A DNA stretch of 64,000 bases from Thermoplasmata archaeon (GTDB lineage: Archaea > Thermoplasmatota > Thermoplasmata > Lutacidiplasmatales > UBA184): contig JAKIVR010000001.1 in NCBI GenBank assembly GCA_022750455.1, forward strand, positions 26,270-90,269, written 5' to 3'. How positions within the stretch are numbered: the first letter of the stretch is position 1; the number at the start of each line of letters is the position of its first letter. The notes under the pieces are model-generated. The model saw nothing but the letters and a program-made list of their open reading frames with translations, made no database searches and was not told the DNA's origin. Positions 6,407 to 51,588 of the stretch are shown here, piece after piece. Both the position numbers and the translations under genes were made by a program.

Positions 6407-6805
6407 CTACGGCATCGAGACCGGGAACAACGGCGCCAGTCCGGCCCTCCAGTAGTCGTACGCCATCGCCCACAGACCGACCCCGGCCAGGAAGACGAGG
6501 CCGATCGAGCTCCACGTCGGCTTGGTGGTCAGATAGAAGGTCGGGGTCAACGGGTTGAGCCGGGTCCCGAGCAGGGAGACACCCGCGCTGAGCAGGACGA
6601 AGCCGATGAGGACCGGGATCAGCAGCGTGTAGTGCACGAGAAAGACGGCCACCACTACGAGCACGATCGCCGTATAACCGGCCGCATTGGAGCGTGGGGG
6701 AACCGGGGCGGGCGCCGGTCGGCCGTTCGCCGGGGCGGGATCCTCTTCGTACGAATCCTCCGGTTCGTAGCCGCTCGGGGTCCGGGGGGCGTACTCGACG
6801 GGCAC
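6407..6805 (-). CDS. Small membrane protein with a Pro/Glu-rich N-terminus and 3 predicted TM helices
   Basis: Hydrophobic helices IVLVVVAVFLVHYTLLIPVLIGFVLLSAGVSLL and IGLVFLAGVGLWAMAYDYW. GTG start with a GATTATTGTA TATA-like element about 30 nt upstream. Confidence 0.5.
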   Translation of the reverse strand: MPVEYAPRTPSGYEPEDSYEEDPAPANGRPAPAPVPPRSNAAGYTAIVLVVVAVFLVHYTLLIPVLIGFVLLSAGVSLLGTRLNPLTPTFYLTTKPTWSSIGLVFLAGVGLWAMAYDYWRAGLAPLFPVSMP

Positions 6806-6940: not shown

Positions 6941-8605
6941 TCAATTTCGGGGACGGCGCGGCGCCCGGGGGGCCGGAGGAAGGGATCCCGAGAGGAGGTC
7001 GGAGGGCGTCGCCCACCCTCGACGAGCGATCCCGGTCGCCACGCCGAGGTGCCGGAGATCCTCGGGTCGCTCCGGTCGGGAGGTGATCGCGAGCCGGGCC
7101 CCGGCTGCGATCGCGGCGCGGACGGCCCCCGAATCGAGTCCGTCCCGCTCTGGAGATGGCGTGACCTCCAGGGCGGTCCCCGTCGCGACCGCCCATCGGA
7201 TCCACGCCTCGATCGGGTCCGCGGCCCCGGCCGTGGACGACGAAGTGCGCAGCCCGCTGACGGTCCACGGAGTGACGGACGGGGGCCCGACCATCGCCTT
7301 CGGGGGCGTCGCGACACCCCCCCGTCGGGTCGGTACCGAGATCCCAAAATCGAACGGGTCCGAGAGCGCCCCCGCGGCGCCCGCGACCCGCTCGATCCCC
7401 AACCGGAGGCGGATCGGCGCCCGCTCCATGCCGTTGTCGTCCCATTGGGTTCGCAGCGCCCGAGCTTCGGAGCCGCTCTTCCCTTCCGGCCAGATGATCC
7501 CCAGCTCCTTCAGGCCGGCCGCGACGGCACTCGCCTTCCACTCCCCTAGGTTTCCCCAGGACTCCACGGCCCGGAAATCCACATGGAGGTCCGAGAGGAC
7601 GGCCGCCGCCGGGACCAGGGGGGGAAGTTGGCCCGCCTCGGCCGCTTCGATCTCCCCGCGATTCTCCCGGATCTCCGGAGGAAAGAACGGGAGGTGGAGC
7701 GCGGCGTAAACGTCCTCTTCCGTCCGGCCCGCGATCAGCGCGTCCCCCCGGTAGACCCCGTACTCGTTCACCTTCAGCCCGAGGTCGCGGGCCAAGGAGC
7801 GGATCCGGACGTTGTGGTCCTTGGAGCCGGTGAAGTACTGCAGAGCGGCACCAAAGCTCTCCGGAGGCACCACGCGCAGGTCGACCTGGATGCCGGGGGC
7901 GATCACGACCGTCATCTTCGTCTCCCCCTGCCCCCGGACGGCCTCGATGTCCGGGAAGGCGGCGAAGACGCGGAACACCTGGGCGGGCGCCGCCGACGTG
8001 GCGAGGATGTCGAGGTCGCCGACCGATTCTCGTCGCCGCCGTAGGCTGCCGGCCACGACGATCTGATCGACCGGCGCTCCCGCGCGGATCCGGGCGACGA
8101 GGCGCTCGGCCAGCTCCCACGCCTCGAGCAGCGGACGGCGTTGCCCGTCGGAGGTCCCCAGCGCGGCCAAGCCTCCGCGGAGCAGTTCGATCTTCCGATC
8201 CTTGAAGCCGGCGAGTCCCTTCAACTTCCCGGCCTCGATCGCCGCCGCGAGCTCCTGGGGTCCCTCGATGCCGAGGGTCAGGTGGAGCATCCGTACGGTC
8301 TTCGGTCCGACCCCCGGGAGTTGAAGCAGCTCCCGCAGCCCCGGTGGCACGTCCCGCCGGAGTTTGTCGAGGTACTCGATCTGGCCCGTGGTGAGGAACT
8401 CCTCGATCTTCGCGGAGATCGCGGCGCCCACCCCCGGGATCTGGTCGAGCTCGTGGCGGGCGGAGACCGCGGCCACCTCCTCGCCCAGCGCCTCGAGGGA
8501 CCGCGCCGCCCGTCGGTAGGCGTTCGGCTTGAACCGTTCGCCCTGGAGATCGAGGAGATCGGCGATCTCGTCGAGCATCTTGATGAGTTCGGCGGTTCCG
8601 GGCAT
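6941..8605 (-). CDS. polX: DNA polymerase X family protein (PolX) with a degenerate C-terminal PHP-like region
   Basis: N-terminal MPGTAELIKMLDEIADLLDLQGERFKPNAYRRAARSL is the Pol X / Pol beta lyase-HhH region. The nucleotidyltransferase motif GSLRRRRESVGDLDIL (GS...GDxD) is present. Start moved to M86 of the track ORF. Confidence 0.75.
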   Translation of the reverse strand: MPGTAELIKMLDEIADLLDLQGERFKPNAYRRAARSLEALGEEVAAVSARHELDQIPGVGAAISAKIEEFLTTGQIEYLDKLRRDVPPGLRELLQLPGVGPKTVRMLHLTLGIEGPQELAAAIEAGKLKGLAGFKDRKIELLRGGLAALGTSDGQRRPLLEAWELAERLVARIRAGAPVDQIVVAGSLRRRRESVGDLDILATSAAPAQVFRVFAAFPDIEAVRGQGETKMTVVIAPGIQVDLRVVPPESFGAALQYFTGSKDHNVRIRSLARDLGLKVNEYGVYRGDALIAGRTEEDVYAALHLPFFPPEIRENRGEIEAAEAGQLPPLVPAAAVLSDLHVDFRAVESWGNLGEWKASAVAAGLKELGIIWPEGKSGSEARALRTQWDDNGMERAPIRLRLGIERVAGAAGALSDPFDFGISVPTRRGGVATPPKAMVGPPSVTPWTVSGLRTSSSTAGAADPIEAWIRWAVATGTALEVTPSPERDGLDSGAVRAAIAAGARLAITSRPERPEDLRHLGVATGIARRGWATPSDLLSGSLPPAPRAPRRPRN

Positions 8606-8687
8606 GTCCGGGGTCAACGGTCGGGGGCCGATAAGGGCCAAGGGGACCCGCGACAAGGGTAAGGGGGCCCGCGCGGGTTTCGCGGAG

Positions 8688-9632
8688 ATGGCGCGCGGGA
8701 GGTGGCCGACGCTCGAACTCCCCGCGCACCTGGCGGCCCTGTACGCCGGGTTCCCCTTCGACCGCAGCGTCCCGGACGATCCGGTCTCCCTCGTTCGACC
8801 TCTCGCCGTGGACCGTCGCTCCGCCGAGATCGCCGGGATCTTCGCGGCGACCCTCGCCATCGGCCGCGCCGCCTCGATCCGACGGGCGTTCTCGACCTGG
8901 CACGGACTGGCCGGCTGTGACTTCCGTCATTTTGTCGAGCGCTCTGCACGCCCGACTTCGGACCGCGCGGTGCGCGCGTTCCGCCACCGCTGGATCCGGG
9001 GAGATCAGCTGGCGTACCTCGGGTACCGGCTCCACGAGATCCAGCGAGAGCACGGCGGCCTCGAGGAGCTGTTTCGCGCCGGCTTTGAGGGACCGAACGG
9101 ATTCGCGGGCGGAGTCGACGCCTTGGCCCACGGGCTGCGCGGCGACGACGCCACGGCCGCGCGCGTCCGTCCACCGGTGGGGTACCGGATCCTGTTCCCG
9201 AGCCCGCTCGAGTCGGCGCGGAGTCCGTGCAAGCGGGAGACTCTGTTCGTCCGGTGGATGGTGCGGACGGAGGTCCCCGATCTCGGGGTCTGGACGCACA
9301 TCCCGACCGGCGAGCTCCGCATCCCGCTCGACCTGCACGTCTACTGGATCGCCCGGAACCTCGGGCTGACTCATCGCAAGACACCGAGTTGGGCGGCCGT
9401 CGAAGAGATCACCGCGGCGCTGCGGGCGATCGACCCGGTCGACCCCGTGCGCTTCGACTTCGTCCTCTGCCACACAGGCATCTCGGGCGATTGTCCGAAG
9501 CACCGGGAGGTGGCCCGGTGTGGCCCGTGCGCCGTGCGGCCCGACTGTCGGCTCTGGCACGGGCGGCCCTGGCCGGGCCCCCCGTCCGCTCAGGAGCAGC
9601 CGCTCGTGGCGCCACAGACGGTGCACGCGTAG
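8688..9632 (+). CDS. DUF2400/TIGR02757-like protein with an Endonuclease III-type [4Fe-4S] cluster loop; putative DNA glycosylase superfamily member
   Basis: C-terminal CHTGISGDC-x8-CGPCAVRPDC gives a C-x2-C-x5-C spacing characteristic of the EndoIII/MutY Fe-S cluster loop. It is divergent from polX across an 83-bp intergenic region. Start set at M54 (MARGRWPTLELPAHL). Confidence 0.5.
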   Translation: MARGRWPTLELPAHLAALYAGFPFDRSVPDDPVSLVRPLAVDRRSAEIAGIFAATLAIGRAASIRRAFSTWHGLAGCDFRHFVERSARPTSDRAVRAFRHRWIRGDQLAYLGYRLHEIQREHGGLEELFRAGFEGPNGFAGGVDALAHGLRGDDATAARVRPPVGYRILFPSPLESARSPCKRETLFVRWMVRTEVPDLGVWTHIPTGELRIPLDLHVYWIARNLGLTHRKTPSWAAVEEITAALRAIDPVDPVRFDFVLCHTGISGDCPKHREVARCGPCAVRPDCRLWHGRPWPGPPSAQEQPLVAPQTVHA

Positions 9633-12427
9633 CACGTGCCCGACCGGACCATGATGCCGCCGCAGATGTGGCACGACGGGGAGTCGTCCGTGTTCCCGCC
9701 TGACGGGCCGTGCGACGATTCCCCGGAGGGCTCGCGCTCCGGAACCCGCCGTCCGTCCCCGAACGAGTCGAGCGGCTTCGTCTCGAACTTCACCATCGTC
9801 GACAGTTTCGCGCTCGCCACGTTCCCGTGGCCATTGCCGTTCGCCTCCGCCGCGGGTCCTTCGAGGCCGATGGAGCGACGCTCCTCCTCGGTGAGGAACT
9901 CGACCGCGAGCCAGCGGGCGACGTAGTCGGGGATCGACTTCGCGAACCGGATCTTGGCGTTGTTCGTGGCGCCGGACGGCTCGAACCGCATGTGCGCGAG
10001 CTTGCGGACGAGGTCCTTCAACGGCACGCCGTGCTGGAGCGCCATCGACATGGAGATCCCGAGGGAGTCCATGAGGCCGTTGACGGTCGAGCCTTCCTTC
10101 GTGACCCGGAAGAACATCTCGCCCGGCCGGCCGTCGGGGTAGAGACCGACGGTGACGTAGCCGTCGTGTCCGCCGACCTGGAAGTGGTGGGTGATCGCCT
10201 TGCGCTCGTCCGGCAGCTTCTCCCGGACCGCGCCGCGCAGGGCGGGGCCGGTCGACTTGCCCTTCGCCGTCTCGTACGGCTGGGACGCCTTGCAGCCGTC
10301 CCGGTAGAGAGCGACGGACTTGACGCCGAGGCGCCACGCCTCCATGTAGATCTTCTCGATGTCCTCGACCGTCGCGTCGTTCGGGAGGTTGATCGTCTTG
10401 GACGCACCGCCCGAGAGGAACGGTTGGACCGCTCCGAGCATCTTGAGGTGCCCCATCGGCGCGATGGTGCGCGAGCCGGCGGTCGGCGCCAGCGCGCAGT
10501 CGAAGACCGGGAGATGCTCCGGAGCGAGCCCCGGGGCGCCTTCGATCGTCCCGGTCGTCTCGAGGTGATGGACGATCGCGGCCGCCGCCTCGGGCGCGTA
10601 GCCGAGCTCGGCGAGCGCCTCGGTGACGGTGCGGTTGACCATCCGCATCTGTCCGCCCCCGACGAGGTTCTTCACCTTCACCAGGGAGAGCTCGGGCTCG
10701 AGACCGAGCGTGTCGCATCCCATCAGGAGCCCGATGGTGCCCGTCGGGGCGATGACCGAGATCTGGGCGTTCCGGTAGCCCCAGAGCTCGCCGGCCTGGA
10801 CCGTCTCGTGCCACCGGTCCGCCGCCGCCGTGACGTACGCGTCGAACCGCCCGTCGGTCTTCGGGATGGCGTCGGCGGCCTTCGCGTGCTTGCCCATGAC
10901 CCGGATCATCGGGGCCCGGTTCTTGTCGAACCCGGGGAACGACCCGACCCGCCGGGAGATCTCGGCGGACATGTGGTACCCTTCCGCGGAGAGGTACGCC
11001 GAAAGCGCGGCGGCGAGGGTGCGACCCGCGTCGGAGTCGTACGGGACCCCGTAGTGCATCAGGAGCGCGCCCAGGTTCGCGTAGCCGAGCCCGAGGGGCC
11101 GGAAGTCGTGGGAGTTCTGCGCGATGGCGGCGGTCGGGTAGCTCGAGGCGTCGACGATGATCTCCATGGCGAGCGCCATCGTGCGGACGGCGTCGCGGTA
11201 GAGCGGCAGGTCGAAGTCGCCCCGCTCGTTGAGGAACTTCATCAGGTTGATCGACGAGAGGTTGCACGCCGTGTCATCGAGGAACAGGTACTCGCTGCAC
11301 GGGTTCGACGCGTTGATCCGCCCGCTCATCGGGGAGGTGTGCCAGTCGTTGGTGACGTCGTCGTACTGGACGCCCGGGTCCCCGCAGCGCCACGCCGCGT
11401 AGGCGAGCTTGCGCCAGAGGTCGCGCGCCTGGTAGCTGGCCGCCACCGCGTGGTCGGTCCGGTTGTACGTCTTCCACTCGCCGTCGCGTTTGACCGCCTC
11501 CATGAAGGCGTCGGGGATGCGGACGGAGTGGTTGGCGTTCTGGTACGAGATGGAGGCGTAGGCGGAGTCCGGGTCCGTTCCGTCGAAGTTCGATGAGAAC
11601 CCCTCGCGGATGAGGGCCATCGCCTTCTCCTCCTCGCGGACCTTGCACTCGATGAAGTCGACGATGTCCGGGTGGTCCATGTTCAGGATCACCATCTTCG
11701 CGGCGCGGCGCGTGGTGCCGCCGGATTTAATCACGCCGGCGAGCGCATCGAACGCCCGCATGAACGAGACCGGGCCCGAAGCGATCCCGCCGCCGGCGAG
11801 GCGCTCGCGGCTGCCGCGGAGCGGCGAGAGGTTCGATCCCGTCCCGCTGCCGCCCTTGAACAGACGCCCTTCGCTGCCGGCGAGCGCAAGGATCGAGTCC
11901 ATGTCGTCCGTGACGGACTGGATGAAGCACGCCGAGCACTGGGGAGGTTGGCGGACCCCGACGTTGAACCAGACGGGGCTGTTGAACGCCGCCATCTGCT
12001 GGACCATGAGGAAGGCGAGGCTCTCCTCGAGGATCGTCGTCTCCTCGACGGTGTCGAGGTAGCCGAGCTCGAGCCCTTTCTGGGCGATCCAGTGCGTCAC
12101 GCGCCGGATCATCCCTTCGATGCTCGTCTCGCGCTGCCCGGCGATGATGCGGAAGTACTTCGACGCCGCGATGTTGATCGCGGTGTCCGACCAGCTCGTC
12201 GGGGCTCGGATCCCCTTGAGCTCGAAGATGACCTTGCCGTCCGCGGCCTTGATCACGGAGTCGTGGAGCCTCCACGAAACCGTGTCGAACGCCGTCTTAC
12301 CCCGAGGTACGAGGCGAGGTACGGCGATCGGCTCCCGCCCGTTCCGGCCGGCGGGCCGGATCCCGGTGTCGTCGGTAGGGGTGTTCGGGTTGCTCGAGAC
12401 GGCGGCGCGCTTTCGGGCTACGGCCAT
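9590..12427 (-). CDS. nrdJ: Adenosylcobalamin-dependent (class II) ribonucleotide reductase with a C-terminal Cys-rich zinc ribbon
   Basis: 945 aa with conserved class II RNR blocks (NPCSEYLFLDDTACNLSSINL, VIAPTGTIGLLMG, SKTINLP). The C-terminus CHICGGIMVRSGTCYACTVCGATSGCS matches the zinc-finger domain described for many class II RNRs. No intein is visible. Confidence 0.9.
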   Translation of the reverse strand: MAVARKRAAVSSNPNTPTDDTGIRPAGRNGREPIAVPRLVPRGKTAFDTVSWRLHDSVIKAADGKVIFELKGIRAPTSWSDTAINIAASKYFRIIAGQRETSIEGMIRRVTHWIAQKGLELGYLDTVEETTILEESLAFLMVQQMAAFNSPVWFNVGVRQPPQCSACFIQSVTDDMDSILALAGSEGRLFKGGSGTGSNLSPLRGSRERLAGGGIASGPVSFMRAFDALAGVIKSGGTTRRAAKMVILNMDHPDIVDFIECKVREEEKAMALIREGFSSNFDGTDPDSAYASISYQNANHSVRIPDAFMEAVKRDGEWKTYNRTDHAVAASYQARDLWRKLAYAAWRCGDPGVQYDDVTNDWHTSPMSGRINASNPCSEYLFLDDTACNLSSINLMKFLNERGDFDLPLYRDAVRTMALAMEIIVDASSYPTAAIAQNSHDFRPLGLGYANLGALLMHYGVPYDSDAGRTLAAALSAYLSAEGYHMSAEISRRVGSFPGFDKNRAPMIRVMGKHAKAADAIPKTDGRFDAYVTAAADRWHETVQAGELWGYRNAQISVIAPTGTIGLLMGCDTLGLEPELSLVKVKNLVGGGQMRMVNRTVTEALAELGYAPEAAAAIVHHLETTGTIEGAPGLAPEHLPVFDCALAPTAGSRTIAPMGHLKMLGAVQPFLSGGASKTINLPNDATVEDIEKIYMEAWRLGVKSVALYRDGCKASQPYETAKGKSTGPALRGAVREKLPDERKAITHHFQVGGHDGYVTVGLYPDGRPGEMFFRVTKEGSTVNGLMDSLGISMSMALQHGVPLKDLVRKLAHMRFEPSGATNNAKIRFAKSIPDYVARWLAVEFLTEEERRSIGLEGPAAEANGNGHGNVASAKLSTMVKFETKPLDSFGDGRRVPEREPSGESSHGPSGGNTDDSPSCHICGGIMVRSGTCYACTVCGATSGCS

Positions 12428-29602: not shown

Positions 29603-32392
29603 TTAGGGTTTGGCCCGGTTGAGAGCAGAATCGGGTTCGGCGTCCCGACCGGACGGGGCCTCCGGAGCGTTCTTCGGCGCGGAGGGAGGGGTAGCGGAGC
29701 TCCGTCTATGAACCCAGATCCAGCCTCCCACGATCGCTCCGATCCCCACAACGGCTACGAACCCGAGGAGGACCCACTCCCACTCGACCAGTTGGCCGGG
29801 CGGAGTTGTCTCGGCCCTCGGCGCGCACGGCGGGGGCGCGACGTTCAAGGTCGTGGACTCGCGGACGGAGACGCCGGAGGAATCGGTCACGATCAGGAGC
29901 ACCGAGTTTGCCGAGTACGAGTACGCAACCGCCGTCACTTCCATCCCGGTCTCGGTCGTCCCGTTGGGGAGCGTCCATTGGTAGCGGTACGGCCCGATCC
30001 CGCCGGTCGCCGAACCGATCAGGTTCCACTCGGTGCTGAACGATCCGTTCGATCCGCACCCCCCGCAGTCGGAGGGCGCGCACGGTGAGGCGACGGTGAC
30101 ATAGGCGGAGAGGGGGGGCGGGGCGGCGGTGCGGAACTCTACGGAAAAGTTCTGGGCGAGGGCCGTTCCGTACTGGCTCGTCGCCTCGGTCGACAGCTCG
30201 ATCGTGTAATTGGTGGCTGGGGCGAGCGCGACGGAATGGGACCACGTCAGCTCGGGGCCCGACACAGTGGCGGCGCCCGCCACGGTCGGGGTGATCGAGA
30301 CGGCCGCGGAGGTCGAGGCGGCGTCCATCGCGAGACTGAACGTGAGGGTCACGTTCTGCCAGACCGAAACATCTTGACTCTGGTTCACCGGGTCGCTGGA
30401 GACGACGGTGGCGTTCGGAGCCGTCGTGAACTGAAATTCGAACGCGTACGGGAGAGGAATTCCGTTCGTCGTGGTTGCGGCGGTTCCGATCGAGACGGTG
30501 TAGACAGTAGCCGGCGAATAGCTGAGGTCGGACACGAGGAGGCTTGTGTTCCCCGAGGTGAAGCTAGCTCCCCAGTCACCAGGAGACGGCAAGATGTTGA
30601 GCGCCGTGAGGACACTGTCGGCGTTCATCGGCTGGCCGAATACCACGGAGATCGCCGCGTGGGTCTCCACGGGGACCAACCTCGTTCCGTTCACCGGAGC
30701 GGAGGAGAGCACCCACGGGTGCAGGAGTACGACGACCGTGACGGGCCCCGACCCCGTGACGGACGCATTCCCGAGATCCAGCTCGTCCTCTGCCACGACC
30801 GTGTAGTTCTCCAGCCAGGTAGTCGTCAGTGCGGTCACCTCGATCTGGGCCGCCACGAAGGTCACCCAGCCACTGGTGTTCGCCGTGGCGATTTGGGGAA
30901 CGCTGAGGTTGGAGGCCCCTCGGAGGGTGACGACCGCTCTGACGGCCGGCGCTCCACCCGGAACGAGGGTTTGCACACGCACCGGCTCGTCCACGTGGAT
31001 CACGCCGGAGTTCAGCGATTGATATCCCTCGCCGGGCGCGAGGGGGCTGTTGAGCAGGGTCACGGTGCCGTTGCTTGTCGCTTGGATGCCGATCGTCGCG
31101 CCCGGGAAGTTGACGTCGCGGTCCACGGAGCTGTTCTCGAGCTCGATCGAGCTCGAATCCGCCGCCGCGACCAAGTTGTAGACCGTGGTGTTCTCGACCA
31201 GGATCTTCGACGTCTCGTACGCGCCCAGGTATCCCGTGATCCCCGTGTAGTTGGAATCGTTGAGGATCACCGTGGACGACCCGTACGCCACGATCTGGGC
31301 GACGTCGCTGTCGGTCACGGCGATGTGGCTGCTGAACGGGAACCACCCCCAGCTGTAGATCGAGACGTTGTACAGGTGGAAGTCGAAGTCCGGGCTCACG
31401 AAGCTGAGGGCCGTATAGTACTGCGCCCGGAATCCTGAGAAGTTGTCGAGCGCGGTCGAGTCCTGCAGGTGGAACCCGACCTGCGCGAACGTCTGGTTGT
31501 GCAGGGTGACGTTCGCCCCGTTCCAGAGGTGCACCCCGTCCCGCCAGATCTGGTCGTTCCCGAGCTGGATGGAGTAGTTGATGCCCGTCACGTTCTGGGT
31601 CCCGGGGAAGATCCACGAGTTCACCTGGGTGAGGTGGTGATGCGCCGGCTCCACGCTCGGGAGCGTGAGGTTCGCCGTCATGCCGGCCTTGAAGTTCGGC
31701 CAGATGTTGAACGCCGAGGAGTTCACGATCCGCAGATGGGCGTTGTTCCACATGGTCGGATTGTCCCACAGCGCCACGTCGGAGAAGAGCACGGAATCGG
31801 AGACGTTCTGGGTCGCGTTGTACGCCACCAGGTCGATGAACCAGTTCCCCCGCACATTGCAAACGGTGCTGTTGGAGATCGCGCTGTTCGAGGAGCCGTA
31901 GAAGTTCCCGCTCCACTGCCACCCGTTCGACTCCACGTTCGATCGGTTGAGCGTGAACCAGCTGTGGTTCTGGAGCACGAGGCTGTACTCGTCGTCGTAC
32001 GCCTCGAGGACGTTCAGGTCCGATTGCTGGATGTCGAGCCGGGCGTTGTCGGTCAGGAGAATGTTTCCCATTACGTCCAACGTGACCGTTTGCGAGGCGT
32101 TGGAGACGAACAAGCTCGAATTCCCGGAGAGGGTGATGTCGCCGACCGTCGTGTTCGTGGAGATGTTCATCTGCGTGGAGCCCGACAGGTCAATGTCCGG
32201 GACCGCCGCGGTCGGCGCCAAGGCGTCGGGGGATGCCGCCCCGGGAAGCTCTCCGGGGCGCTCCGCCGGGGAGGCGGCCGACCCGAGAGGAACTCCGGAG
32301 CGGCTCGCCGATCCCGTGAGTCCCGGCGGGGCGATCACCAGCAGAATGAGGGCGAGCGTGATTGCGATCGGGAGGGGTGACCGGCCCATCAC
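29603..32392 (-). CDS. Large cell-surface protein: signal peptide, right-handed parallel beta-helix (PbH1-like) repeats, many N-glycosylation sequons, C-terminal TM anchor
   Basis: Begins MMGRSPLPIAITLALILLVIAPPGLTGSAS. More than 20 N-x-S/T sequons (NISTNTT, NSS, NAS, NHS, NRS, NST...). It ends in a hydrophobic anchor, VLLGFVAVVGIGAIVGGWIWVHRR. Confidence 0.7.
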   Translation of the reverse strand: MMGRSPLPIAITLALILLVIAPPGLTGSASRSGVPLGSAASPAERPGELPGAASPDALAPTAAVPDIDLSGSTQMNISTNTTVGDITLSGNSSLFVSNASQTVTLDVMGNILLTDNARLDIQQSDLNVLEAYDDEYSLVLQNHSWFTLNRSNVESNGWQWSGNFYGSSNSAISNSTVCNVRGNWFIDLVAYNATQNVSDSVLFSDVALWDNPTMWNNAHLRIVNSSAFNIWPNFKAGMTANLTLPSVEPAHHHLTQVNSWIFPGTQNVTGINYSIQLGNDQIWRDGVHLWNGANVTLHNQTFAQVGFHLQDSTALDNFSGFRAQYYTALSFVSPDFDFHLYNVSIYSWGWFPFSSHIAVTDSDVAQIVAYGSSTVILNDSNYTGITGYLGAYETSKILVENTTVYNLVAAADSSSIELENSSVDRDVNFPGATIGIQATSNGTVTLLNSPLAPGEGYQSLNSGVIHVDEPVRVQTLVPGGAPAVRAVVTLRGASNLSVPQIATANTSGWVTFVAAQIEVTALTTTWLENYTVVAEDELDLGNASVTGSGPVTVVVLLHPWVLSSAPVNGTRLVPVETHAAISVVFGQPMNADSVLTALNILPSPGDWGASFTSGNTSLLVSDLSYSPATVYTVSIGTAATTTNGIPLPYAFEFQFTTAPNATVVSSDPVNQSQDVSVWQNVTLTFSLAMDAASTSAAVSITPTVAGAATVSGPELTWSHSVALAPATNYTIELSTEATSQYGTALAQNFSVEFRTAAPPPLSAYVTVASPCAPSDCGGCGSNGSFSTEWNLIGSATGGIGPYRYQWTLPNGTTETGMEVTAVAYSYSANSVLLIVTDSSGVSVRESTTLNVAPPPCAPRAETTPPGQLVEWEWVLLGFVAVVGIGAIVGGWIWVHRRSSATPPSAPKNAPEAPSGRDAEPDSALNRAKP

Positions 32393-37348: not shown

Positions 37349-37942
37349 GTGACCGATCCTCCCTCCCGCCGTGGGCTCCCCCCGACGGCCGGCGATCGGT
37401 GGCGACGCGGGGCGTTCGATCGACCGACGGTGCGGGTCGCGCGCGAGCTGCTCGGCGCTTGGCTCGTCGTCCGCCAGGGCCAGCGCAGGCTCTCGGCCCG
37501 GATCGTGGAGACGGAGGCGTACGTCGCGCGGGACGCGGCGAGCCACACGTTCCGAGGACCGACCCGTCGCAACCGGTCCATGTTCGGGCCGCCGGGAACG
37601 CTGTACGTGTACCGCATCCATCAGGTCGTCTGCGCGAACGTGGTCACCCAGCCCGGTCAGGCCGTGTTGCTCCGCGCCGCGGAACCCGGCCCGGGTCTCC
37701 GGGGGGATACCCGAGGCCCTGGACGGCTGTGCCGCACCCTCGGGATCACGCTCCTCGATGACGGCTCCGATGTGGTCCACGGACGGGTCGAGGTGAGGAG
37801 CGGAGCCCGCCGGACCGAGCGGATCGTGGTCGGGCCCCGGGTAGGGATCTCCCGTGGGGCGCGTCGGAGACTTCGCTACGCTCTCGACGGGAACCGGTGG
37901 GTCTCGTTGCCTCGACCGAGGCGGGTGCGCCCTACCGCTTGA
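37349..37942 (+). CDS. mpg: DNA-3-methyladenine glycosylase (Mpg/AAG family)
   Basis: [18 protein letters not shown]...[41 protein letters not shown]...LLRAAEP matches the Mpg family. GTG start. Confidence 0.8.
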
Positions 37943-40513: not shown

Positions 40514-40957
40514 TCAGGCCGGCCCCTTCAACTTCGTGGAGATCTCCACGACGTTTCCGTCCGGGTCCCTCAGGATCGCATTGCGAACGCCCATCATCGG
40601 CCGGTCCGTCGGCGGCGAGAAGAACTTCCTCCCGGCGTCGGAGATCCGACGGTACGCCGCATCGACGTCCGGGACCTGGATGGCGAACACCACGGTCCCT
40701 CCCGGCCCGACGTCGAGCGGGGGCGCGTCGGCGCCGTGGACCTTCGCATAGAATCCCTTCTCGAGCAGTACCAGCCGAACCCCGCTCGACTGGAACTCGG
40801 CCCACGGGGGAGAGCCGTCCGTCTCCGTCGCCAGCCCGATCGTGTCGTGGTAGAATCCGAACGAGGCCGCGAAGTCCGCGCAGACGACCAGGGGTCCGTA
40901 GAGAATGCCAGCCGCCGGGCTCGCCATGCTGTTCACGATCGGGTCCGAGTATTTCAT
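40514..40957 (-). CDS. VOC/glyoxalase-family protein, about 147 aa
   Basis: The C-terminal 147 aa of the track ORF (MKYSDPIVNS...HDTIGLATETDG...GNVVEIS) has the beta-alpha-beta-beta-beta pattern of the VOC superfamily. The upstream 200 aa of the ORF are spurious. Confidence 0.5.
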   Translation of the reverse strand: MKYSDPIVNSMASPAAGILYGPLVVCADFAASFGFYHDTIGLATETDGSPPWAEFQSSGVRLVLLEKGFYAKVHGADAPPLDVGPGGTVVFAIQVPDVDAAYRRISDAGRKFFSPPTDRPMMGVRNAILRDPDGNVVEISTKLKGPA

Positions 40958-41075
40958 CCCAGTAGCCCCCGAATCGGAGCGGAGCGCCCGAGTTCCCCCG
41001 CCGTCCCGCCGCCCCGTCTCGGCCCGCCCACGTCCGGTGTCAAGTAGCTCGAAGGAATCGACCCTCGACTCCTCC

Positions 41076-42413
41076 ATGGCGCAGCGATCCAGGACGAGCT
41101 TGGAGCTCCCTCTCGCGACCGCGCGGCGGTTCGTCCTCGATGCGCAACGGTTCCCGAAGCGCGCGCCTCCGCGGCGTCCGACCAAGGGGGAGATCCTGCG
41201 CTTGGTCGAACATCTCGGGTACGTCCAGCTGGATCCCACCAGCATCGTCGCCCGGAGCCACCTTCTCGTCCTCTGGAGCCGCCTCGGGCCGTACGATCCC
41301 CGGTGGGTGGACGAGCTGCTGGAGAAGGACAAGCAGCTGTTCGAATACTGGGCCCACGAGGCGTCGATCGTCCCGACCTCGGACCTGCCGTACCACCGGT
41401 TCCTGATGCGGAGATATCCGTGGGAACGGGGCCCGTATGGCGTTCGGATCCGCCGGTGGATGAAGCGGAACGCGCCGCTCCGCCGGGAGGTGCTCGCCCG
41501 ATTGCGCTCGGACGGCGCCCTGCCCCTCCACGCGTTCGCCGGCCGATCCCCGTCGGGATGGACGTCGAGGGAGAGGGACACCGGACGGAACGTGCAGCAG
41601 ATGCTGTTCGTCCTCTGGCTCCAAGGTCGGGTCGCCGTGCCTCGCCGGGAGTCGGGCCGGCGGTGGTGGGACCTCGCCGAACGTCACTATCCACCGGAGC
41701 CGAAGGGAGGCGCCCTGAGCCACCGGGCGGGGGCCTTGGGGACCGTGGACCGGGCGTTGCAAGCCCTGGGCGTGGCGACGGAGCGTCAGATCGCGCACTA
41801 CTCGATGTCGAATCGATTTCCCCACGTGGGCCGGGTGATCGAGCGCCTCACGTCGGAGGGCGCCCTGACCCCGACGACCCTGACCGGCGGACGCCGGCCG
41901 GTGAAGGGGCGCTGGTTCGTCCGGACGAAGGATCTCCCCCGCCTCACGTCCGGCGAGTTCGATCGACCGTGGCGGCGCGCCACCCTGCTCTCCCCGTTCG
42001 ACAGCTTGATCACGAACCGGGAGCGCACCGAGACGCTCTTCGGGCTGCGGTACCGGATCGAGATCTACACGCCGGCGGCGAAGCGGGTGCACGGGTACTA
42101 CGCGATGCCCGTGCTCGTCGGCGACCGTCTGGTCGGGACCGTGGAACCGGTCTTCGATCGGCGTCGGAACGTTCTGCAGGTCCCTCAGGGACACGAGAGC
42201 TCCGAGGAGGCGGGGGAGCGCAGTTCGGGAGCGGGCGTCGATCGGGCCGTGCGGGGCCTCGCCGACTTCCTCGGGGCGGATCGGGTGGAGTACGGACGCC
42301 GGTTCCCGGCGGCCTGGCGGGGCCATCTCGTCAGCGGACCGCTCGGGCGCCGCCCGGCGCGCGCCTCGCCCGTCGTCACTCCACGTCGTCGGGGAGGTCT
42401 TGCTCCAGGATGA
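41076..42413 (+). CDS. AlkZ/YcaQ-like winged-helix DNA glycosylase (DUF1006, HTH_42)
   Basis: The block TLLSPFDSLITNRERTETLFGLRYRIEIYTPAAKRVHGYYAMPVLVGDRLVGTVEP matches the YcaQ/AlkZ C-terminal catalytic region. Start set at MAQRSRTSLELPL. Confidence 0.55.
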   Translation: MAQRSRTSLELPLATARRFVLDAQRFPKRAPPRRPTKGEILRLVEHLGYVQLDPTSIVARSHLLVLWSRLGPYDPRWVDELLEKDKQLFEYWAHEASIVPTSDLPYHRFLMRRYPWERGPYGVRIRRWMKRNAPLRREVLARLRSDGALPLHAFAGRSPSGWTSRERDTGRNVQQMLFVLWLQGRVAVPRRESGRRWWDLAERHYPPEPKGGALSHRAGALGTVDRALQALGVATERQIAHYSMSNRFPHVGRVIERLTSEGALTPTTLTGGRRPVKGRWFVRTKDLPRLTSGEFDRPWRRATLLSPFDSLITNRERTETLFGLRYRIEIYTPAAKRVHGYYAMPVLVGDRLVGTVEPVFDRRRNVLQVPQGHESSEEAGERSSGAGVDRAVRGLADFLGADRVEYGRRFPAAWRGHLVSGPLGRRPARASPVVTPRRRGGLAPG

Positions 42414-42546
42414 GCGCCCCCGAGTAGCCGCACGCCTCGCAGACGTAGCGCGGTCCGAGGATCCCCCCGAGGATCGGGGAGATCTGCGTCGACTGGCAGC
42501 TCGGGCAGATCTTGATCGTCTTATGTTTCGCCCGGCGGTGAACCAT
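42376..42546 (-). pseudogene. Small 4-Cys zinc-ribbon gene interrupted by a 1-nt frameshift in a G-run (possibly a sequencing error)
   Basis: The ATG-initiated frame reads [22 protein letters not shown] and then degenerates. The -1 frame continues SPILGGILGPRYVCEACGYSGALILEQDLPDDVE to a stop. Removing one G from cggggagg (about 42474-42480) gives a clean 56-aa CPSC...CEAC protein. It overlaps the 3' end of gyrA. Confidence 0.5.
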
Positions 42547-45085
42547 CGTCGTCCCCCTTCGGCTCGGGCTCGTCGTCCGTCGGTGCCTCCGCCTCGGGCT
42601 CCGTGGGGGCGGCCGGCGTCGCCAGGGCGGCCTCCGCCGGTGGGTCGAGCGCCGCGACGTCCTTCACCGCATCGTTCGGCTCCAACCGGATGATCCGAAC
42701 GCCCATGGTGTTCCGGCCCTGGGAGCGGATCCCATCGACCGGGACGCGGATCGTGATGCCGTCCTGGGTCGTCACGAGCGCCTCTTGGTCCGGGGTGACC
42801 GGCAGCACCGCCACCACGTCGCCGTTCCGCCCGCCGGTCCGGATCGTCCGGACGCCCCGGGCCCCGCGCCGGGTCCGGCGGTAGTCCGCGAACTTGCTCC
42901 GCTTGCCAAAGCCCGTGGTGGTGAGGGTCAACAGGTCGGGCAGCTCGGCGGTCGCCGGGGCCATCGTCACGACCCGGTCCGTCGCGGGGTCCTTCAGGCG
43001 GACGCCGATGACCCCGTATGTCGCGCGCCCGGTCGGACGCACTTCGCTGAGCGGGAACCGGACCAACAGGCCGGAGGCGGTGGCGAGGATGACCTCCACG
43101 TCGTCCTGCGGCAGCAGGGCGACGTTCACGAGCTCGTCCTTCTCCTCGAGGAGGATCGCCTGGATCCCGTTCGTCCGGATGTTCTGGAACTGGTCGAGGG
43201 TCGTTCGCTTGACGAACCCCTGGCGGGTCGCGAAGAGGAGGCTGCCGCCGGTCGCGAGGTCCCGGATCGGAAGCAACGTCTGGACCTTCTCGTTCTCGAG
43301 CAGCTTCGGGAGGAGGTTGACGACCGCCTTGCCCTTCGAGTGGCGGCTTCCCTCGGGGAGCTCGTACGCCTTCAGCCGGTAGACGCGGCCGAGCGTGGTG
43401 AAGAAGAGGATGTTGTCGTGCGTCCGGGTGACGAACGTGCCGGTCACGAAGTCCTCCTCCTTCGTCTCCATCTGGATGAGCCCCTTGCCGCCCCGCCGCT
43501 GGCGGCGGTACTGGTCGAGCGGGAGGCGCTTGACGTAGCCGGAGTTCGTGACGAGCACGACGACGTCGGTGTCGGGGATCAGGTCCTCGAGCGTCCTCTC
43601 GGTGAATCCCGGGACGACCTTCGTCCGCCGGGGGTCGTTGAACTTCTGCTTGATCTCCTGCAGCTCGACGACGATCAGCGCATCGAGCTCCTTCGGGGAG
43701 GCGAGGATCGCCGTGAGGCGCTTGATCAGCTCCTCCTTCTCCTTCGCCTCCTTCTCGATCGACTCGCGTTCGAGGCCGGTGAGGCGCGAAAGTCGCATGT
43801 CCAGGATCGCCTTCGCCTGCTCCGTCGAGAGCAGGAACTTGCCCATCAGCGCCGTCTCGGCCGTGGCGACGTCCTTGGACTTACGGATGATCCGGACGAC
43901 CTCATCGATGTGGTCGAGGGCGACGAGGAACCCTTCGAGGAGGTGCTTGCGCTCCTGGGCCCGGGCGAGATCGAACTTGGTCCGTCGCGTGATGACCGTC
44001 CGGCGCTCCGTGAGGTGGAGCTGGAGGAGCTCGGCGAACGGTAGCACCTTCGGGCGGCCGTCGACGAGGCAGAGGTTGATGACGCCGAACGCCGCCTCGA
44101 GCGGGGTGTGCTCGTACAGCCGGTTGAGGACGATCTCCGCGGGCGCGTCCCGCCGCAGCTCGAGAACGATGGAGATGCCGTGCCGGTCGGACTCGTCCCG
44201 AAGGTCGGTGATGCCGTCGATCCGCTTCGCCTTGACGAGCTCCGCGATGAGCTGGAGCAGGCTCGACTTGTTGACCTCGTACGGGATCTCGGTGATGACG
44301 ATCTCGTCGCGCCCGTCCCGCTCCCGCGTCTCCGCCTTCCCGCGGATGCGCAGCATGCCGCGGCCGGTCGCGTAGACCTCGTGGAGGCTGGTGTCGGCGG
44401 CGACCAGCCCTCCGGTCGGGAAATCCGGTCCGGGGACGAGCTGGAGCAGCTCCTCGACGGTCGCCTCGGGCTTCCGGAGGACGAGGAGGAGCGCGTCGAC
44501 GATCTCCCCGAGGTTGTGGGGCGGCATGTTCGTCGCCATGCCGACGGCAATTCCGGCCGAACCGTTCACGAGCAGGTTCGGGAGCTTCGTCGGGAGCGTC
44601 AGCGGCTCCTTCAGCGTCCCATCGAAATTGTCGGTCCAGTCGACGGTCTCCTTCTCGATGTCCGTGAGCATGTCGTCGGCGATGGCGGCGAGGCGCGCCT
44701 CGGTGTACCGCATGGCGGCCGGCGGGTCGCCATCGATGGAGCCGAAGTTCCCCTGCCCGTCGATGAGCGGATAGCGCATGGAGAACAGCTGGCCCATCCG
44801 GACCAGCGCGTCGTACACCGACTGGTCGCCGTGCGGGTGGTACTTGCCGAGCACCTCTCCGACGGCGCGGGCGGACTTGCGGTACGGCTTGTCGTGGGTG
44901 ACCCCGCTCTCCCACATCGCCCAGAGGATGCGCCGGTGGACCGGCTTCAGGCCGTCCCGGCCGTCGGGGAGCGCCCGTCCGATGATGACGCTCATGGCGT
45001 ACTCGAGGTACGAGGTGTGGATCTCGCGCTCCAGCGGCTGCTCCCGGAGGCGGGAGTCCTTCACGAGCTCGACCTCGGGGCTCAT
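42521..45085 (-). CDS. gyrA: DNA gyrase subunit A
   Basis: [57 protein letters not shown]..., the active-site Tyr region, and C-terminal beta-pinwheel repeats; 853 aa. The track ORF carries a spurious 321-aa Arg/Gly-rich N-terminal extension. No gyrB is adjacent. Confidence 0.9.
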
Positions 45086-46464
45086 GGGGCGGTCCCTCCG
45101 ATCTGGCCGGCGACGACCTTCTCGGCGGCCTCGAGGAAACTTTGCCGCGAGCCGGCCGGGATGGTCGCCCCAGCGGCGACGCGGTGACCGCCCCCCTCGC
45201 CCTTCACGGAACGCGCCGCCTCGCGGCACGCCACGGAGAGGTCGAGCCCCTGCTCCACGAGCCACGTCGTCGCCCGGGAGGAGACCTTCATCTGGGTCGA
45301 GGACTCCGCCGCGATCCCGAAGACCGGATGCCGAGGATTGAGCAGGTAGTTCGCCGCGAACCCGGCCTGCGCGCCGGCGAGCGTCGACTCGTGGCTCTCG
45401 AACCAGTAGATGGAACCGAGTCGCTGCGGGCCCTCCAGCTCGAGTCGTCGGAGCCCGCTCATCACCCCCGTCCGCCACTGAGCCTCGGCCGCCTTCGCCT
45501 GGTGGAGAGCCGTGGGGTCCCCGAGCGCCAGCGAGATCCCGAGACCCGGCTCCCCGATGCGTCCGACCGAGTTCTGCAGGTTCGAGAGGTCCTCGGCGTC
45601 GAACTTCGGGTGCTCGGTGGTCCACGCCTCCCGACGAACCATGTGCACGAACTCGGGTCTCGCCCCTTGTTCTTGTAGCCGTCGCTCCAGTTCGGCCGCC
45701 AGGCGCTCCGTCCCTTCTTTTGACAGCGCCTCCGGGGCGACGGCAGGGTCGATCTCGAGCGAACGAAGGAGCGCCGTACACGCCTCCAAGTTGCCCGAGA
45801 GCCCCCGGAAGTACGGGTCCACGCTCCGCTCGATCGCGTCGGCGATGGTCGGGCCCCGGACGGCGAGGGCGGCCCGGGGGTGCAGGAGACCACGCTCGGT
45901 CGCCTCCTTCACGAGTCGGCCGCTCAGCCCTTGGAACCCTCCGACGTTCTGGCGGTCGGCGATCCCCCCGGAGAGACCCCACGGCGCGTTGTCCCAATTC
46001 TTCGGATCGAGGAAGATCGTGAACAGCCACGTGAGCGTGGCGCCGCACAGCTCGCTCATCCCGTCGACCCCCCAGTTCAACGGGTTCACGTATGCGACGT
46101 GCGCCGGCAGCTCGCCGGGGAACGGAGGGGCCTTGTGGTGGTCGAGTACGATGACGGGGTGAGCGTGCTTCGCGAACGCATCGAGCCAGCTCGCCCCCGT
46201 ATCGATGACCCAGACGGGGCCGGGGGTCGCGTGGAGGAGCTCCTCGATCTTGCCGCGCTCCACGCCGAGGAGCGGCGTCGCCTGCGCCGGATAGCCGAGA
46301 CGTCCCAGGGCGCGCACCGCGGACGACGCGCCCGCGATCCCATCCCCGTCGTAATGGTAGATGATGCGCCAGCGACCGGGGTGGGTGAGAAGGAGCTCTC
46401 GCGCCCGGTCGAACTCCCGGGCGTACTGTGGGTGGCTGACGAAACTCTCGGGCCCCGAGGGCAT
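45082..46464 (-). CDS. Archaeal RecJ-like DHH/DHHA1 phosphoesterase (RecJ/Cdc45/GAN-like)
   Basis: [22 protein letters not shown] and GGGHRVAAG (DHHA1) are present. Start at MPSGPESF (M134 of the track ORF) overlaps the rps15 stop as TGATG. Confidence 0.75.
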
Positions 46465-46919
46465 CACTCCACCTGGAGTACCGCCCGGGTGGCCGAATAG
46501 CTCCACGTCTCGGGGAGCACCTTGTGTTGCCGGTAATAGATTGCGAGGCGACGGATGCGCGACTCCATCAGGTTCAGTCCCCGGCGGTTCGCGAGATCCT
46601 TCGGATTCTGGCTGAGATGGCGCTGGAGCTTGACGACGCGCTTTAGGAGCGCCTCGATGTCCTCGGGGATGTCGCCCTTGATCCCGTTGTCGTGGAGAAG
46701 GGTGCCCAGGCGCTTGCCCGTGACGAGGCGGACGGAGGGGATCGCATACCCATCCCGCAGCTGCGCCCCGACCTGGGCGCTGGAGAGGCCGCTCTTGGCG
46801 AGCCGGACCGCCTGCTCCGTCGCCTCGTCCGCATCGACGGTGACCCACTCGGGGCGGGTCCACGGATACGGGCGCTGGGAGCCGGCACGGCCCCGGCGAC
46901 GGGAGTGGATGCGAGACAC
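46464..46919 (-). CDS. rps15: 30S ribosomal protein S15 (uS15, archaeal S15P/S13e)
   Basis: [20 protein letters not shown]...[37 protein letters not shown] is a typical archaeal S15 with a GTG start. Confidence 0.85.
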
Positions 46920-46942: not shown

Positions 46943-46952
46943 CTTAACGGTT
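46943..46952 (-). promoter_or_regulatory. AACCGTTAAG TATA-like element 24 nt upstream of the rps15 GTG
   Basis: The minus strand reads GAACCGTTAAGTACGCAACGG, sharing the 10-mer with the Sm-L37e upstream region. Confidence 0.4.
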
Positions 46953-47324
46953 CGCGCGCAAGGAGTTCTGACCACGTAGCAGGGCCGGCCGCGCCGCCTC
47001 TCCGGATCGGGCCGGGGACGGAACTCCGACGGAGGGAACGCCCTCCCCGCCGCTCCCGCCCAACCTACGTCTTTAAGCAACATGGCTATACCGCCGCAGG
47101 GAGGCCGTCGAGGTCCGGTGCGCCACGGAGAGTCCGACCTTCGGAACCCCAGCGTGGAAATTTCGGGAGACCGCCCGTTCCTGCGGACGATCCGGTCGCG
47201 CGCTCTGCGACGTTCCCGCTTCGCCTCGGCCCTCCGGCGTTCGGGTGCCCCGGTCCCCGTTCGATATCGTTCCGATCCGTGCGGTCCCCCGGCGATCTCG
47301 TCGACCCTCGTATGGGGGCGGATC

Positions 47325-51584: not shown

Positions 51585-51588
51585 GACG

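Follow-up and report, generated by a model that had tools for sequence, protein, structure and literature searches.

The canonical family X DNA polymerases (PolX), those of Thermus thermophilus and Bacillus subtilis, consist of a core of 8-kDa, fingers, palm and thumb domains with a DDD catalytic triad, followed by a C-terminal PHP-fold domain that carries nuclease and AP-endonuclease activities. In the noncanonical PolXs of Deinococcus and others the polymerase site is lost, the PHP site is extremely conserved and the protein is retained (PMC9226535). The same study found PolX in 31% of complete archaeal genomes and 13% in bacteria, so that an earlier, sequence-only reading of the locus described here was mistaken in calling the enzyme uncommon in archaea. 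As of that 2022 survey no archaeal PolX had been characterised, and PolX gene neighbourhoods were class-specific, with no universal partner. A decayed PHP domain is also found in E. coli Pol III alpha, a family C polymerase; its metal ligands are gone and, according to PMC3666897, a structural role keeps the domain in place.

The second group of relevance here is the HhH-GPD superfamily, in particular the Fe-S-bearing Nth/MutY/MIG enzymes. These have a catalytic Asp motif (xDTHV) preceded by a Gly/Pro-rich stretch, a short LPGVG hairpin and a C-terminal loop of four cysteines spaced C-x6-C-x2-C-x5-C. In the bifunctional Nth a Lys opens the helix that follows the hairpin. QNG1/DUF2419, a queuosine-nucleotide N-glycosylase, is without the Fe-S loop and its substrate is the free nucleotide, not DNA.

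The window, a stretch of 64,000 nucleotides with 69% G+C from a soil archaeon (Lutacidiplasmatales-like Thermoplasmata), contains a PolX gene and a DUF2400/TIGR02757 gene arranged back to back (Table 1). This divergent pairing is as first read from the sequence, except that the spacer measures 82 bp and not 83. The best overall explanation, in which we place about even confidence, is that the two are separately transcribed repair genes, one for a DUF2400 Fe-S glycosylase-like protein and the other for a PolX with a decayed PHP domain. The overlap of the DUF2400 gene with the ribonucleotide reductase (RNR) gene is also found in a relative, L162. The small membrane protein on the other side has a homologous ORF in L011 (6994-7362) and gave no match in a Pfam search. 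The mpg and AlkZ-like genes, once counted toward a repair-gene density, are both present in the window but are 29-32 kb distant, with ATP synthase, surface-protein and folate genes in between. Scanning the window for Rfam families and tRNAs gave no matches.

Table 1. Positions of the PolX/DUF2400 locus and its sequence features in the window
Feature	Position	Strand	Remarks
Small conserved membrane protein, 3' of PolX	6407..6805	-	member of conserved gene block; context only
PolX gene	6941-8605	-	554 aa, N-terminus MPGTAELIK
Degenerate PHP-like C-terminal domain of PolX	6941..7579	-	residues 343-554 plus stop
PolX polymerase core	7580..8605	-	residues 1-342: 8-kDa/HhH domain, fingers, palm (DDD triad), thumb
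Divergent spacer	8606-8687	.	82 bp; both promoters and four AAGGG tracts
Putative PolX TATA-like element GATAAG (CTTATC on minus strand)	8630..8635	-	~28 bp from ATG
BRE/TATA-type element of DUF2400 gene, AAGGGTAAG	8655..8663	+	starts -33 from ATG
DUF2400/TIGR02757 gene	8688-9632	+	314 aa
K182 codon, candidate Schiff-base Lys	9231..9233	+	N-terminus of helix following hairpin; family-invariant
D215 codon in PLDxHV	9330..9332	+	aligned to EndoIII catalytic Asp (VDTHI, D138)
Fe-S cluster-loop motif C269-x8-C278-x2-C281-x5-C287	9492..9548	+	
Convergent 3'-end overlap, DUF2400 and RNR genes	9590-9632	.	43 bp
Class II ribonucleotide reductase (RNR) gene	9590-12427	-	
AAG/mpg homologue	~37415-37909		
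AlkZ-like gene	40905-42413		

The polymerase core of the window PolX is ~50% identical to that of the Thermus enzyme. Pfam identified HHH_8 (3e-22), thumb (1e-21), palm and HHH_5 domains, and the Thermus PolX 3au2 matches residues 6-366 with an E-value of 2e-85. The total length is also alike, as is the presence of a C-terminal PHP-fold domain. The DDD triad is intact in the window protein and in all 64 relatives. Comparison with the nearest relative gave a dN/dS of 0.06 for the core and twice that, 0.12, for the PHP-like domain; with the same substitutions seen in L162, these values rule out a pseudogene, a truncation or a misassembly. Because the core is intact, the window PolX is likely to be capable of gap filling.

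The PHP-like domain is where the window PolX departs from the canonical enzymes. Aligned to the nine-ligand consensus HHHEHHEDH (taken from PMC9226535) its signature reads HDPETGERE, with three of the nine metal ligands kept. L162 also keeps three, and 56 of the 64 relatives keep five (HH.E.HE..). The catalytic site had been suspected lost from the missing HxH motif (DLHVDF); the ligand alignment bears this out and is worse than was supposed. A Pfam search found no PHP match in this region, and phmmer aligned the Thermus PHP domain with the C-terminus over a weak stretch only. The ligand signature, together with an NCBIfam PolX equivalog score of 258.8 that falls below the cut-off of 426, indicates that the PHP-borne nuclease and AP-endonuclease are probably absent; judged by sequence, the 3'-5' exonuclease, AP-endonuclease and 3'-phosphodiesterase activities have very probably been lost. 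The dN/dS of the PHP-like part means that purifying selection persists, and the decayed domain may have been kept as a structural or DNA-binding module. Pol III alpha offers a parallel for such a structural role in a different polymerase family. As in the noncanonical PolXs one catalytic module has decayed and the protein has been retained, but the window PolX is their mirror image in the module that was lost.

The DUF2400 protein matches PF09674 over model positions 1-224 of 225 (E = 1.4e-49, 169.6 bits; gathering cut-off 25) and scores 125.5 bits against NCBIfam TIGR02757, under the curated cut-off of 139.2. Its identity as DUF2400-like was upheld by the first profile, while the second placed it short of the threshold; at the level of sequence it is a divergent archaeal branch of DUF2400/TIGR02757. 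The family is large and widespread: clustering at 50% identity gives >2000 clusters, and members occur in numerous lineages of both bacteria and archaea. Domain fusions were sought among its longer members and only DUF2400 was found. Full-text literature searches on DUF2400, TIGR02757, PF09674 and new HhH-GPD families returned nothing relevant.

The relationship to EndoIII appears at the level of the family rather than the single protein. A PDB search with the single sequence gave noise only, and Pfam HhH-GPD (PF00730) did not match the window protein at E-values up to 1. Across the family, 13 of 95 members match HhH-GPD weakly (best 0.0023), the only other family to recur. The family profile matches EndoIII structures in hmmsearch (E = 0.005-0.04), and hhalign gave E = 2.3e-5 and a probability of 76% against an EndoIII profile that is shallow, its homologue search having yielded only Enterobacterales at >=86% identity. 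One member, L159, matches E. coli Nth even in plain tblastn (5e-4; the Nth query is 99% identical to the database entry). An AlphaFold model from a deep alignment (pLDDT 93.1) has the two-domain helical glycosylase fold of HhH-GPD proteins. On the best explanation DUF2400/TIGR02757 is a divergent branch of the HhH-GPD superfamily, closest to the Nth/MutY/MIG group; of this, the fold is shown, as is homology over the C-terminal half. The window protein has the fold, the candidate catalytic Asp motif and the Cys loop of EndoIII-type glycosylases. It differs from this group in several ways. First, identity is 11-16%. Second, the hairpin has ~12 residues (FPSPLESARSPC) instead of LPGVG, and the first Cys spacing is x8 instead of x6. 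Third, the protein is ~80-100 residues longer than EndoIII and has invariant positions of its own (HRW at 100-102 and DPxDPVRYDF at 249-258).

D215 in PLDxHV, the candidate catalytic Asp, is family-invariant and was aligned to the EndoIII Asp both by hmmsearch to 1orn and by hhalign; the stretch before it (D198, G200, W202, P213) recalls the Gly/Pro-rich segment of the Nth/MutY/MIG enzymes. K182 is kept in all 95 family representatives and in all 27 members without the canonical Cys-motif spacing, and begins a helix (182-192) in both structure models. It is the presumed counterpart of EndoIII K120, as suggested by the motif (GSACKRL against GVGRKTA) and the secondary structure; the hhalign alignment leaves the non-canonical hairpin before it uncovered. 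Across 122 diverse members there is little or no variation at K182, R183, D198, G200, W202, P213, D215 and H217. The window protein has all of the family-invariant R101, K182, R183, W190, R193, P213, D215, H217, D252, P253 and D257.

The C-x2-C-x5-C motif noticed at the C-terminus is confirmed as part of C261-x7-C269-x8-C278-x2-C281-x5-C287, in which all five cysteines are invariant in 24 close homologues. Of 127 full-length representatives chosen across the family, 100 have the four-Cys motif (C269 to C287); the cluster is missing in ~12% of members, and the deep-alignment model gives the loop a pLDDT of 96-98. Both hmmsearch and hhalign align the cysteines one for one with those of EndoIII, with identical x2 and x5 spacings. 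The four cysteines C-x8-C-x2-C-x5-C would bind a [4Fe-4S] cluster and so place the DNA-binding loop, D215 would activate catalysis and K182 would form a Schiff base. Together, these would make the protein a bifunctional glycosylase/AP-lyase acting on some lesion.

Alternatively, DUF2400 might not be a DNA glycosylase and might instead hydrolyse a modified nucleoside or nucleotide, as QNG1 does, or bind DNA or RNA through a non-catalytic Fe-S domain. The non-canonical helix-hairpin-helix, the extra residues with invariant R101, D252, P253 and D257, and the cluster-less members could all be read in this way, and neither NCBIfam nor Pfam assigns a function. However, the sequence-level similarity is solely to EndoIII and covers the catalytic Asp motif and the DNA-binding cluster loop; none was detected to QNG1, and cluster-bearing DNA enzymes rank above QNG1 once the loop is confidently modelled. 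The Lys and Asp are conserved throughout the family, and genuine MutY enzymes also include cluster-less variants (8uuc). A role other than DNA glycosylase is improbable.

The PolX gene is upstream and divergent of DUF2400 in 75 of 80 related genomes, or 75 of the 77 loci with sufficient upstream flank, and a GNAT gene separates the two in 72 of the 80. The 80 syntenic genomes are without exception from a single lineage of Thermoplasmata, one order. The pairing is ancestral to this order, the usual arrangement being PolX, GNAT and divergent DUF2400, and the window clade has lost GNAT. A PADLOC defence-system search gave no match for DUF2400, PolX or GNAT. Elsewhere only 3 of 80 diverse DUF2400 loci have a PolX gene close by, and these represent one or two bacterial lineages. 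Two of these (L144 and L120) have PolX on the minus strand followed by MoaB and DUF2400 on the plus strand, with PolX within ~1 kb; in the looser third case, L137, it is 6.5 kb away. Clustering of the neighbours of these 80 metagenome loci gave no recurrent repair partner and mostly antisense-ORF noise; an M20 peptidase, a MEMO-like protein and a thioredoxin reductase were among the other neighbours. The contigs that carry the nearest homologues beyond the close Thermoplasmata relatives are too short to give gene context. In L094 a canonical nth gene is found 1.2 kb from DUF2400; it was rejected as a partner, since nth is present in nearly every genome and such proximity is expected by chance.

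The two genes may simply be functionally unrelated neighbours whose order was inherited within one archaeal order, in which case DUF2400 may still be a glycosylase. The confinement of the synteny to one lineage fits this, as do the inclusion of RNR, GNAT and the membrane protein in the conserved block, the divergent and usually non-adjacent genes, the 77 of 80 diverse loci with no PolX nearby, the lack of a recurrent repair partner and the class-specific neighbourhoods of PolX. Against it, the order has been retained while the proteins diverged to ~50-65% identity, and an independent bacterial lineage has a divergent PolX ~1 kb from DUF2400. With the third lineage at 6.5 kb this exceeds the ~0.02 PolX genes expected by chance in ~515 kb of flanking DNA, a crude figure that uses the 13% bacterial prevalence. 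Unrelated neighbours are a serious contender, though somewhat less likely than not.

The best explanation places in the spacer two archaeal BRE/TATA promoters that point away from each other, each ~27-33 bp from its start codon. Elements of the AAnnGTAAA type start at -35 to -32 of DUF2400 in 70 of 80 relatives, and the 9-mer class of AAGGGTAAG is also found at -33 of the rpS15 gene. The position of AAGGGTAAG implies a leaderless or near-leaderless DUF2400 mRNA. On the PolX side the putative TATA-like element fits the -27 rule, and its ATAAG is kept in L162 and L163 while the neighbouring G-runs are not. The AAGGG tracts (at 8633, 8640, 8655 and 8661) would for the most part represent the A-containing element cores, set in DNA of such high G+C content.

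The sequence-only reading had proposed that these tracts form a G-quadruplex or a shared regulatory site; as a rival explanation, such a quadruplex or operator would co-regulate both genes after DNA damage. The tracts are present and are not an artefact of composition, since none of 300 Markov-1 simulations reached four AAGGG within 40 bp, whereas the spacer has four in 33 bp. Its plus strand has 39 G against 21 C, and an imperfect direct repeat, GATAAGGGCCAAGGGG / GACAAGGG-TAAGGGGG, changes in parallel in both halves in L162. The tracts are not conserved, however, in relatives whose DUF2400 is 83-89% identical; two of the four exact tracts remain in L162 and none in L163, with the spacer ~83% identical, and a G4-like motif is upstream in only 5 of 80 relatives. 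The window holds 54 G4-like motifs (loops up to 12 nt), as a background of its G+C content, and four runs can be attained here only with a 9-11 nt loop. The downstream half of the cluster is at the site of the lineage-wide BRE/TATA element. A quadruplex or operator can hardly be correct, and the two-promoter reading serves as a warning that intergenic G-rich repeats in a 69% G+C archaeon are likelier to be promoter cores.

A base-excision-repair module as originally suggested is retained only in part. The adjacency is conserved in one order; the divergent orientation in place of co-transcription, the intervening GNAT and the rarity of PolX near DUF2400 elsewhere count against it. DUF2400 and PolX could still act in one short-patch base-excision pathway, the former excising the lesion and incising the strand and the latter filling the gap. 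A shared pathway is plausible, if somewhat short of an even bet. The lyase product needs a 3'-diesterase, the very activity that the window PolX seems to have lost, so 3'-end cleaning would require another enzyme; in addition, the conserved block includes RNR and the membrane protein, and the synteny may be simple inheritance. The fullest version, which we consider rather unlikely and put forward tentatively, is that DUF2400/TIGR02757 is a family of Fe-S DNA glycosylase/lyases with a lesion specificity of its own that forms, together with a PolX now lacking the PHP nuclease, a two-gene "excise and fill" unit in Lutacidiplasmatales.

These findings extend known superfamilies and do not overturn current understanding. 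For a large family with a "domain of unknown function" they provide a concrete hypothesis, that of a predicted Fe-S DNA glycosylase whose candidate catalytic residues can be named. An archaeal PolX clade predicted to be polymerase-competent with a degenerate PHP site would be a new kind of PolX decay, the counterpart of the PolXs, described only recently, in which the polymerase site is dead and the PHP site active. If the "excise and fill" unit is real, the DUF2400 lyase would replace the AP-endonuclease function that bacterial PolX carries itself.

The window has a G+C content of 68.7% and carries the archaeal markers PurP and an A-type ATP synthase operon. Homologues of its DUF2400 protein come nearly all from Thermoplasmata MAGs, among them Candidatus Lutacidiplasmatales, a lineage of acidic soils with a G+C of ~69% and genomes of ~2.1 Mb (PMC9287336). 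PolX and DUF2400 do form a divergent pair; the observations of the sequence-only reading held overall and its interpretation in part. The 3' ends of the DUF2400 and class II ribonucleotide reductase (RNR) genes overlap convergently, as they do in L162, which with L163 belongs to the window's clade. The overlap appears to be due to a clade-specific C-terminal tail of ~20 aa, modelled with low confidence.

Coordinates of the features in the window and in related or comparison loci (L numbers)
Feature	Locus	Position	Strand	Remarks
Small membrane protein	window	6407-6805	minus	directly downstream of PolX, same strand; no Pfam match
PolX	window	6941-8605	minus	554 aa, start MPGTAELIK
PolX-DUF2400 spacer	window	8606-8687		82 bp
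Spacer repeat halves	window	8629-8647, 8652-8669
GATAAG	window	8630-8635		upstream spacer half
DUF2400 protein	window	8688-9632	plus	314 aa
DUF2400/RNR overlap	window	9590-9632		43 bp
DUF2400/RNR overlap	L162	2639-2681		43 bp
Class II RNR	window	9590-12427	minus
AAnnGTWAR elements	window	46944-46952, 61500-61508, 677-685	minus
AAG/mpg	window	~37415-37909		1e-21 to human AAG
AlkZ-like	window	40905-42413		PF06224 at 1e-57
DNA gyrase A	window	42521-46863	minus	longest ORF
gyrB-like ORF	window	45082-46863
Kelch/PKD + Big_5 repeat proteins	window	47082-53652	plus	1500, 687 and 929 aa, with next row
Kelch/PKD + Big_5 repeat proteins	window	29603-32392	minus
Small membrane protein	L011	6994-7362	minus	counterpart
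PolX	L011	7415-9070		example of the 64 related PolX genes
FR47/GNAT acetyltransferase	L011	9122-10024	minus	equivalent position in 72/80 of L001-L080
PolX-MoaB-DUF2400	L144	5117-8822		independent of archaeal pairing
PolX-MoaB-DUF2400	L120	1705-5349		independent of archaeal pairing
DUF2400, cluster-less	L137	7980-8777
DUF2400	L094	1305-2267
nth/endonuclease III	L094	3479-4093		same strand as DUF2400

In Pfam the DUF2400 protein matches PF09674 alone (1.4e-49), and its NCBIfam TIGR02757 score of 125.5 bits is under the 139.2 cut-off. A PDB search with the single sequence gave no match, and a literature search found no paper on the family, which an exhaustive HMMER search put at 2038 cluster representatives (50% identity). 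Invariant in 95 diverse members are P32, R101, K182, R183, W190, R193, P213, D215, H217, D252, P253, D257 and four cysteines. The consensus around D215, PLDTHVxRI, corresponds to the EndoIII catalytic motif VDTHIFRV, and the cysteines follow C-x8-C-x2-C-x5-C in 100 of 127 near-full-length representatives. K182 and D215 also persist in members without this spacing, some of which truly lack a cluster. Cluster-less proteins make up about a tenth of the family (P0139, P0170, P0190, P0223, P0240, P0244, P0255, P0257, the L137 protein and others), yet retain these and the other invariant residues, a parallel to the cluster-less MutY variants.

The kinship with EndoIII was seen at several levels. First, a profile of the 95 sequences matched EndoIII structures (1orn, 1p59, 9nzc and Deinococcus EndoIII 8a5f, 8a5c, 8a5g and 4unf) at E = 0.005-0.04, in an alignment that begins at the Asp motif and ends with the final cysteine. 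Second, hhalign gave E = 0.004 against E. coli Nth alone and 2.3e-5 (probability 76%) against a shallow 12-sequence Nth profile, and the L159 member matched E. coli Nth by plain tblastn (5e-4). Pfam HhH-GPD was weakly matched by 13 of the 95 members, and no other Pfam family recurred in more than five. Third, a second structure model, built from the 95-sequence alignment, has a pLDDT of 93.1 (96-98 at residues 260-290). Cluster-bearing enzymes top its structural ranking: NTHL1 (13.9), MutY and Deinococcus EndoIII-3 (13.1 each), MUTYH (13.0), E. coli EndoIII (12.8; 195/211 residues aligned), and MIG (12.3). QNG1 (11.6) and OGG1 (10.9) come next, with AGOG, AlkA and others below. Thus the profile, hhalign and model evidence establishes the fold of DUF2400 and the homology of its C-terminal half to EndoIII. 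The EndoIII-like Fe-S loop proposed earlier stands as a motif; cluster binding and DNA-glycosylase activity are predicted. K182 is a candidate Schiff-base lysine because GSACKRL resembles GVGRKTA and K182 starts helix 182-192; the ~12-residue hairpin preceding it is non-canonical.

Residues 6-366 of PolX align with Thermus PolX (2e-85), and the palm triad DDD is present in the window protein and in all 64 relatives examined. PolX had been called uncommon in archaea; it occurs in 31% of complete archaeal genomes (PMC9226535), so its presence by itself is not unusual. Nine PHP ligands are "extremely conserved" in prokaryotic PolXs (consensus HHHEHHEDH, 88-98% of sequences; PMC9226535). The window PolX retains three of the nine (HDPETGERE), as does that of L162, the nearest relative (HDPEPGERD). 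The His-to-Asp and His-to-Gly changes common to both are therefore real and not sequencing errors. The canonical site is lost, as the sequence-only reading had it, and loss of the activity is predicted from the residues. In the comparison of the window with L162, the polymerase core has a dN/dS of 0.06 and the PHP-like part one of 0.12; the latter domain is thus kept under selection though its canonical metal site is gone. The window PolX is a mirror image of the "noncanonical" PolXs, in which polymerase activity went and the PHP site stayed. A reduced set, HH.E.HE.. (5/9), runs through the whole lineage (56/64 relatives) and might still bind one or two metals in a remnant site whose activity has changed; decay has gone further in the window clade and L004.

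A divergent PolX lies upstream of DUF2400 in 75 of 80 related genomes and is missing in just two loci having enough flank. An FR47/GNAT gene, co-directional with PolX, usually stands between them, and the conserved block also holds the class II RNR and small membrane protein genes. No GNAT homologue was found anywhere in the window, and L162 and L163 share its short spacer, so direct pairing is a derived state: this clade lost the GNAT gene and kept the ~82-bp divergent spacer.

The four AAGGG tracts of the spacer, previously read as a potential G-quadruplex or shared regulatory site, do exist, and their local clustering is non-random. The spacer aligns at ~83% in two relatives with DUF2400 proteins of 89% and 83% identity, and conservation is restricted to the A-containing cores ATAAG and GACAAG.GTA.GG; two of the four tracts are kept in L162 and none exactly in L163. 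Of the 80 related genomes, 70 have an AAnnGTAAA-type element, most commonly GCAACGGTAAAT, that begins between -35 and -32 relative to the start codon of DUF2400; in the window it is AAGGGTAAG (start at -33). In the window, 9-mers of the AAnnGTWAR type are enriched, with 6 found against 1.7 expected; one of them stands exactly 33 nt ahead of the rpS15 GTG start. Together these mark a general archaeal BRE/TATA promoter with leaderless or short-leader mRNA, and the element may serve as a promoter signature when start codons are called in this lineage. GATAAG, ~28 bp from the PolX ATG, is likely the TATA box of PolX. The quadruplex or shared-operator reading was rejected, since the G-runs are unconserved, the downstream half is a promoter and G4-like motifs are common background (54 in the window with loops <=12 nt; upstream of DUF2400 in only 5/80 relatives). 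Oddly, the spacer consists of an imperfect direct repeat, GATAAGGGCCAAGGGGACC / GACAAGGG-TAAGGGGGCC, whose two copies have changed in parallel in L162, AAGCG replacing AAGGG in both.

The base-excision-repair module proposed for the pair was followed in 80 diverse metagenome DUF2400 loci (583 kb in total, 45 loci >5 kb). PolX was nearby in three. L144 and L120 are one lineage, called bacterial because holA and holB are next door; PolX (minus), its PHP domain intact, is followed by MoaB and DUF2400 (plus), ~1 kb apart. L137 has a G+C of 35%, a cluster-less DUF2400 and PolX 6.5 kb off. PolX occurs in 13% of bacterial genomes (PMC9226535), a prevalence that predicts ~0.02 chance occurrences in the flanking DNA of this sample. 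Recurrence outside the order, in one or two events, is suggestive. No other recurrent repair neighbour was found among the 80 loci; the canonical nth gene 1.2 kb downstream of DUF2400 in L094, one case in 80, is within chance expectation. The adjacency is thus conserved in the order, but with GNAT usually between and few pairings outside, a shared pathway is a tentative reading, somewhat more doubtful than even. DUF2400, if a lyase, would leave a 3'-blocked product needing a diesterase, which the window PolX is probably unable to supply.

The AlkZ-like and AAG/mpg genes said to add to repair-gene density both exist, but they lie 29-32 kb from the locus, past unrelated operons, and form no cluster or dense repair island with it. 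Elsewhere in the window, the gyrase A ORF carries ~357 extra N-terminal residues, which probably overlap the gyrB-like ORF, and its start codon needs re-calling. The very large Kelch/PKD and Big_5 repeat proteins are presumably surface proteins.

What is gained is a specific prediction of function for the large, unstudied DUF2400 family, together with an archaeal clade whose PolX has a decayed PHP site.
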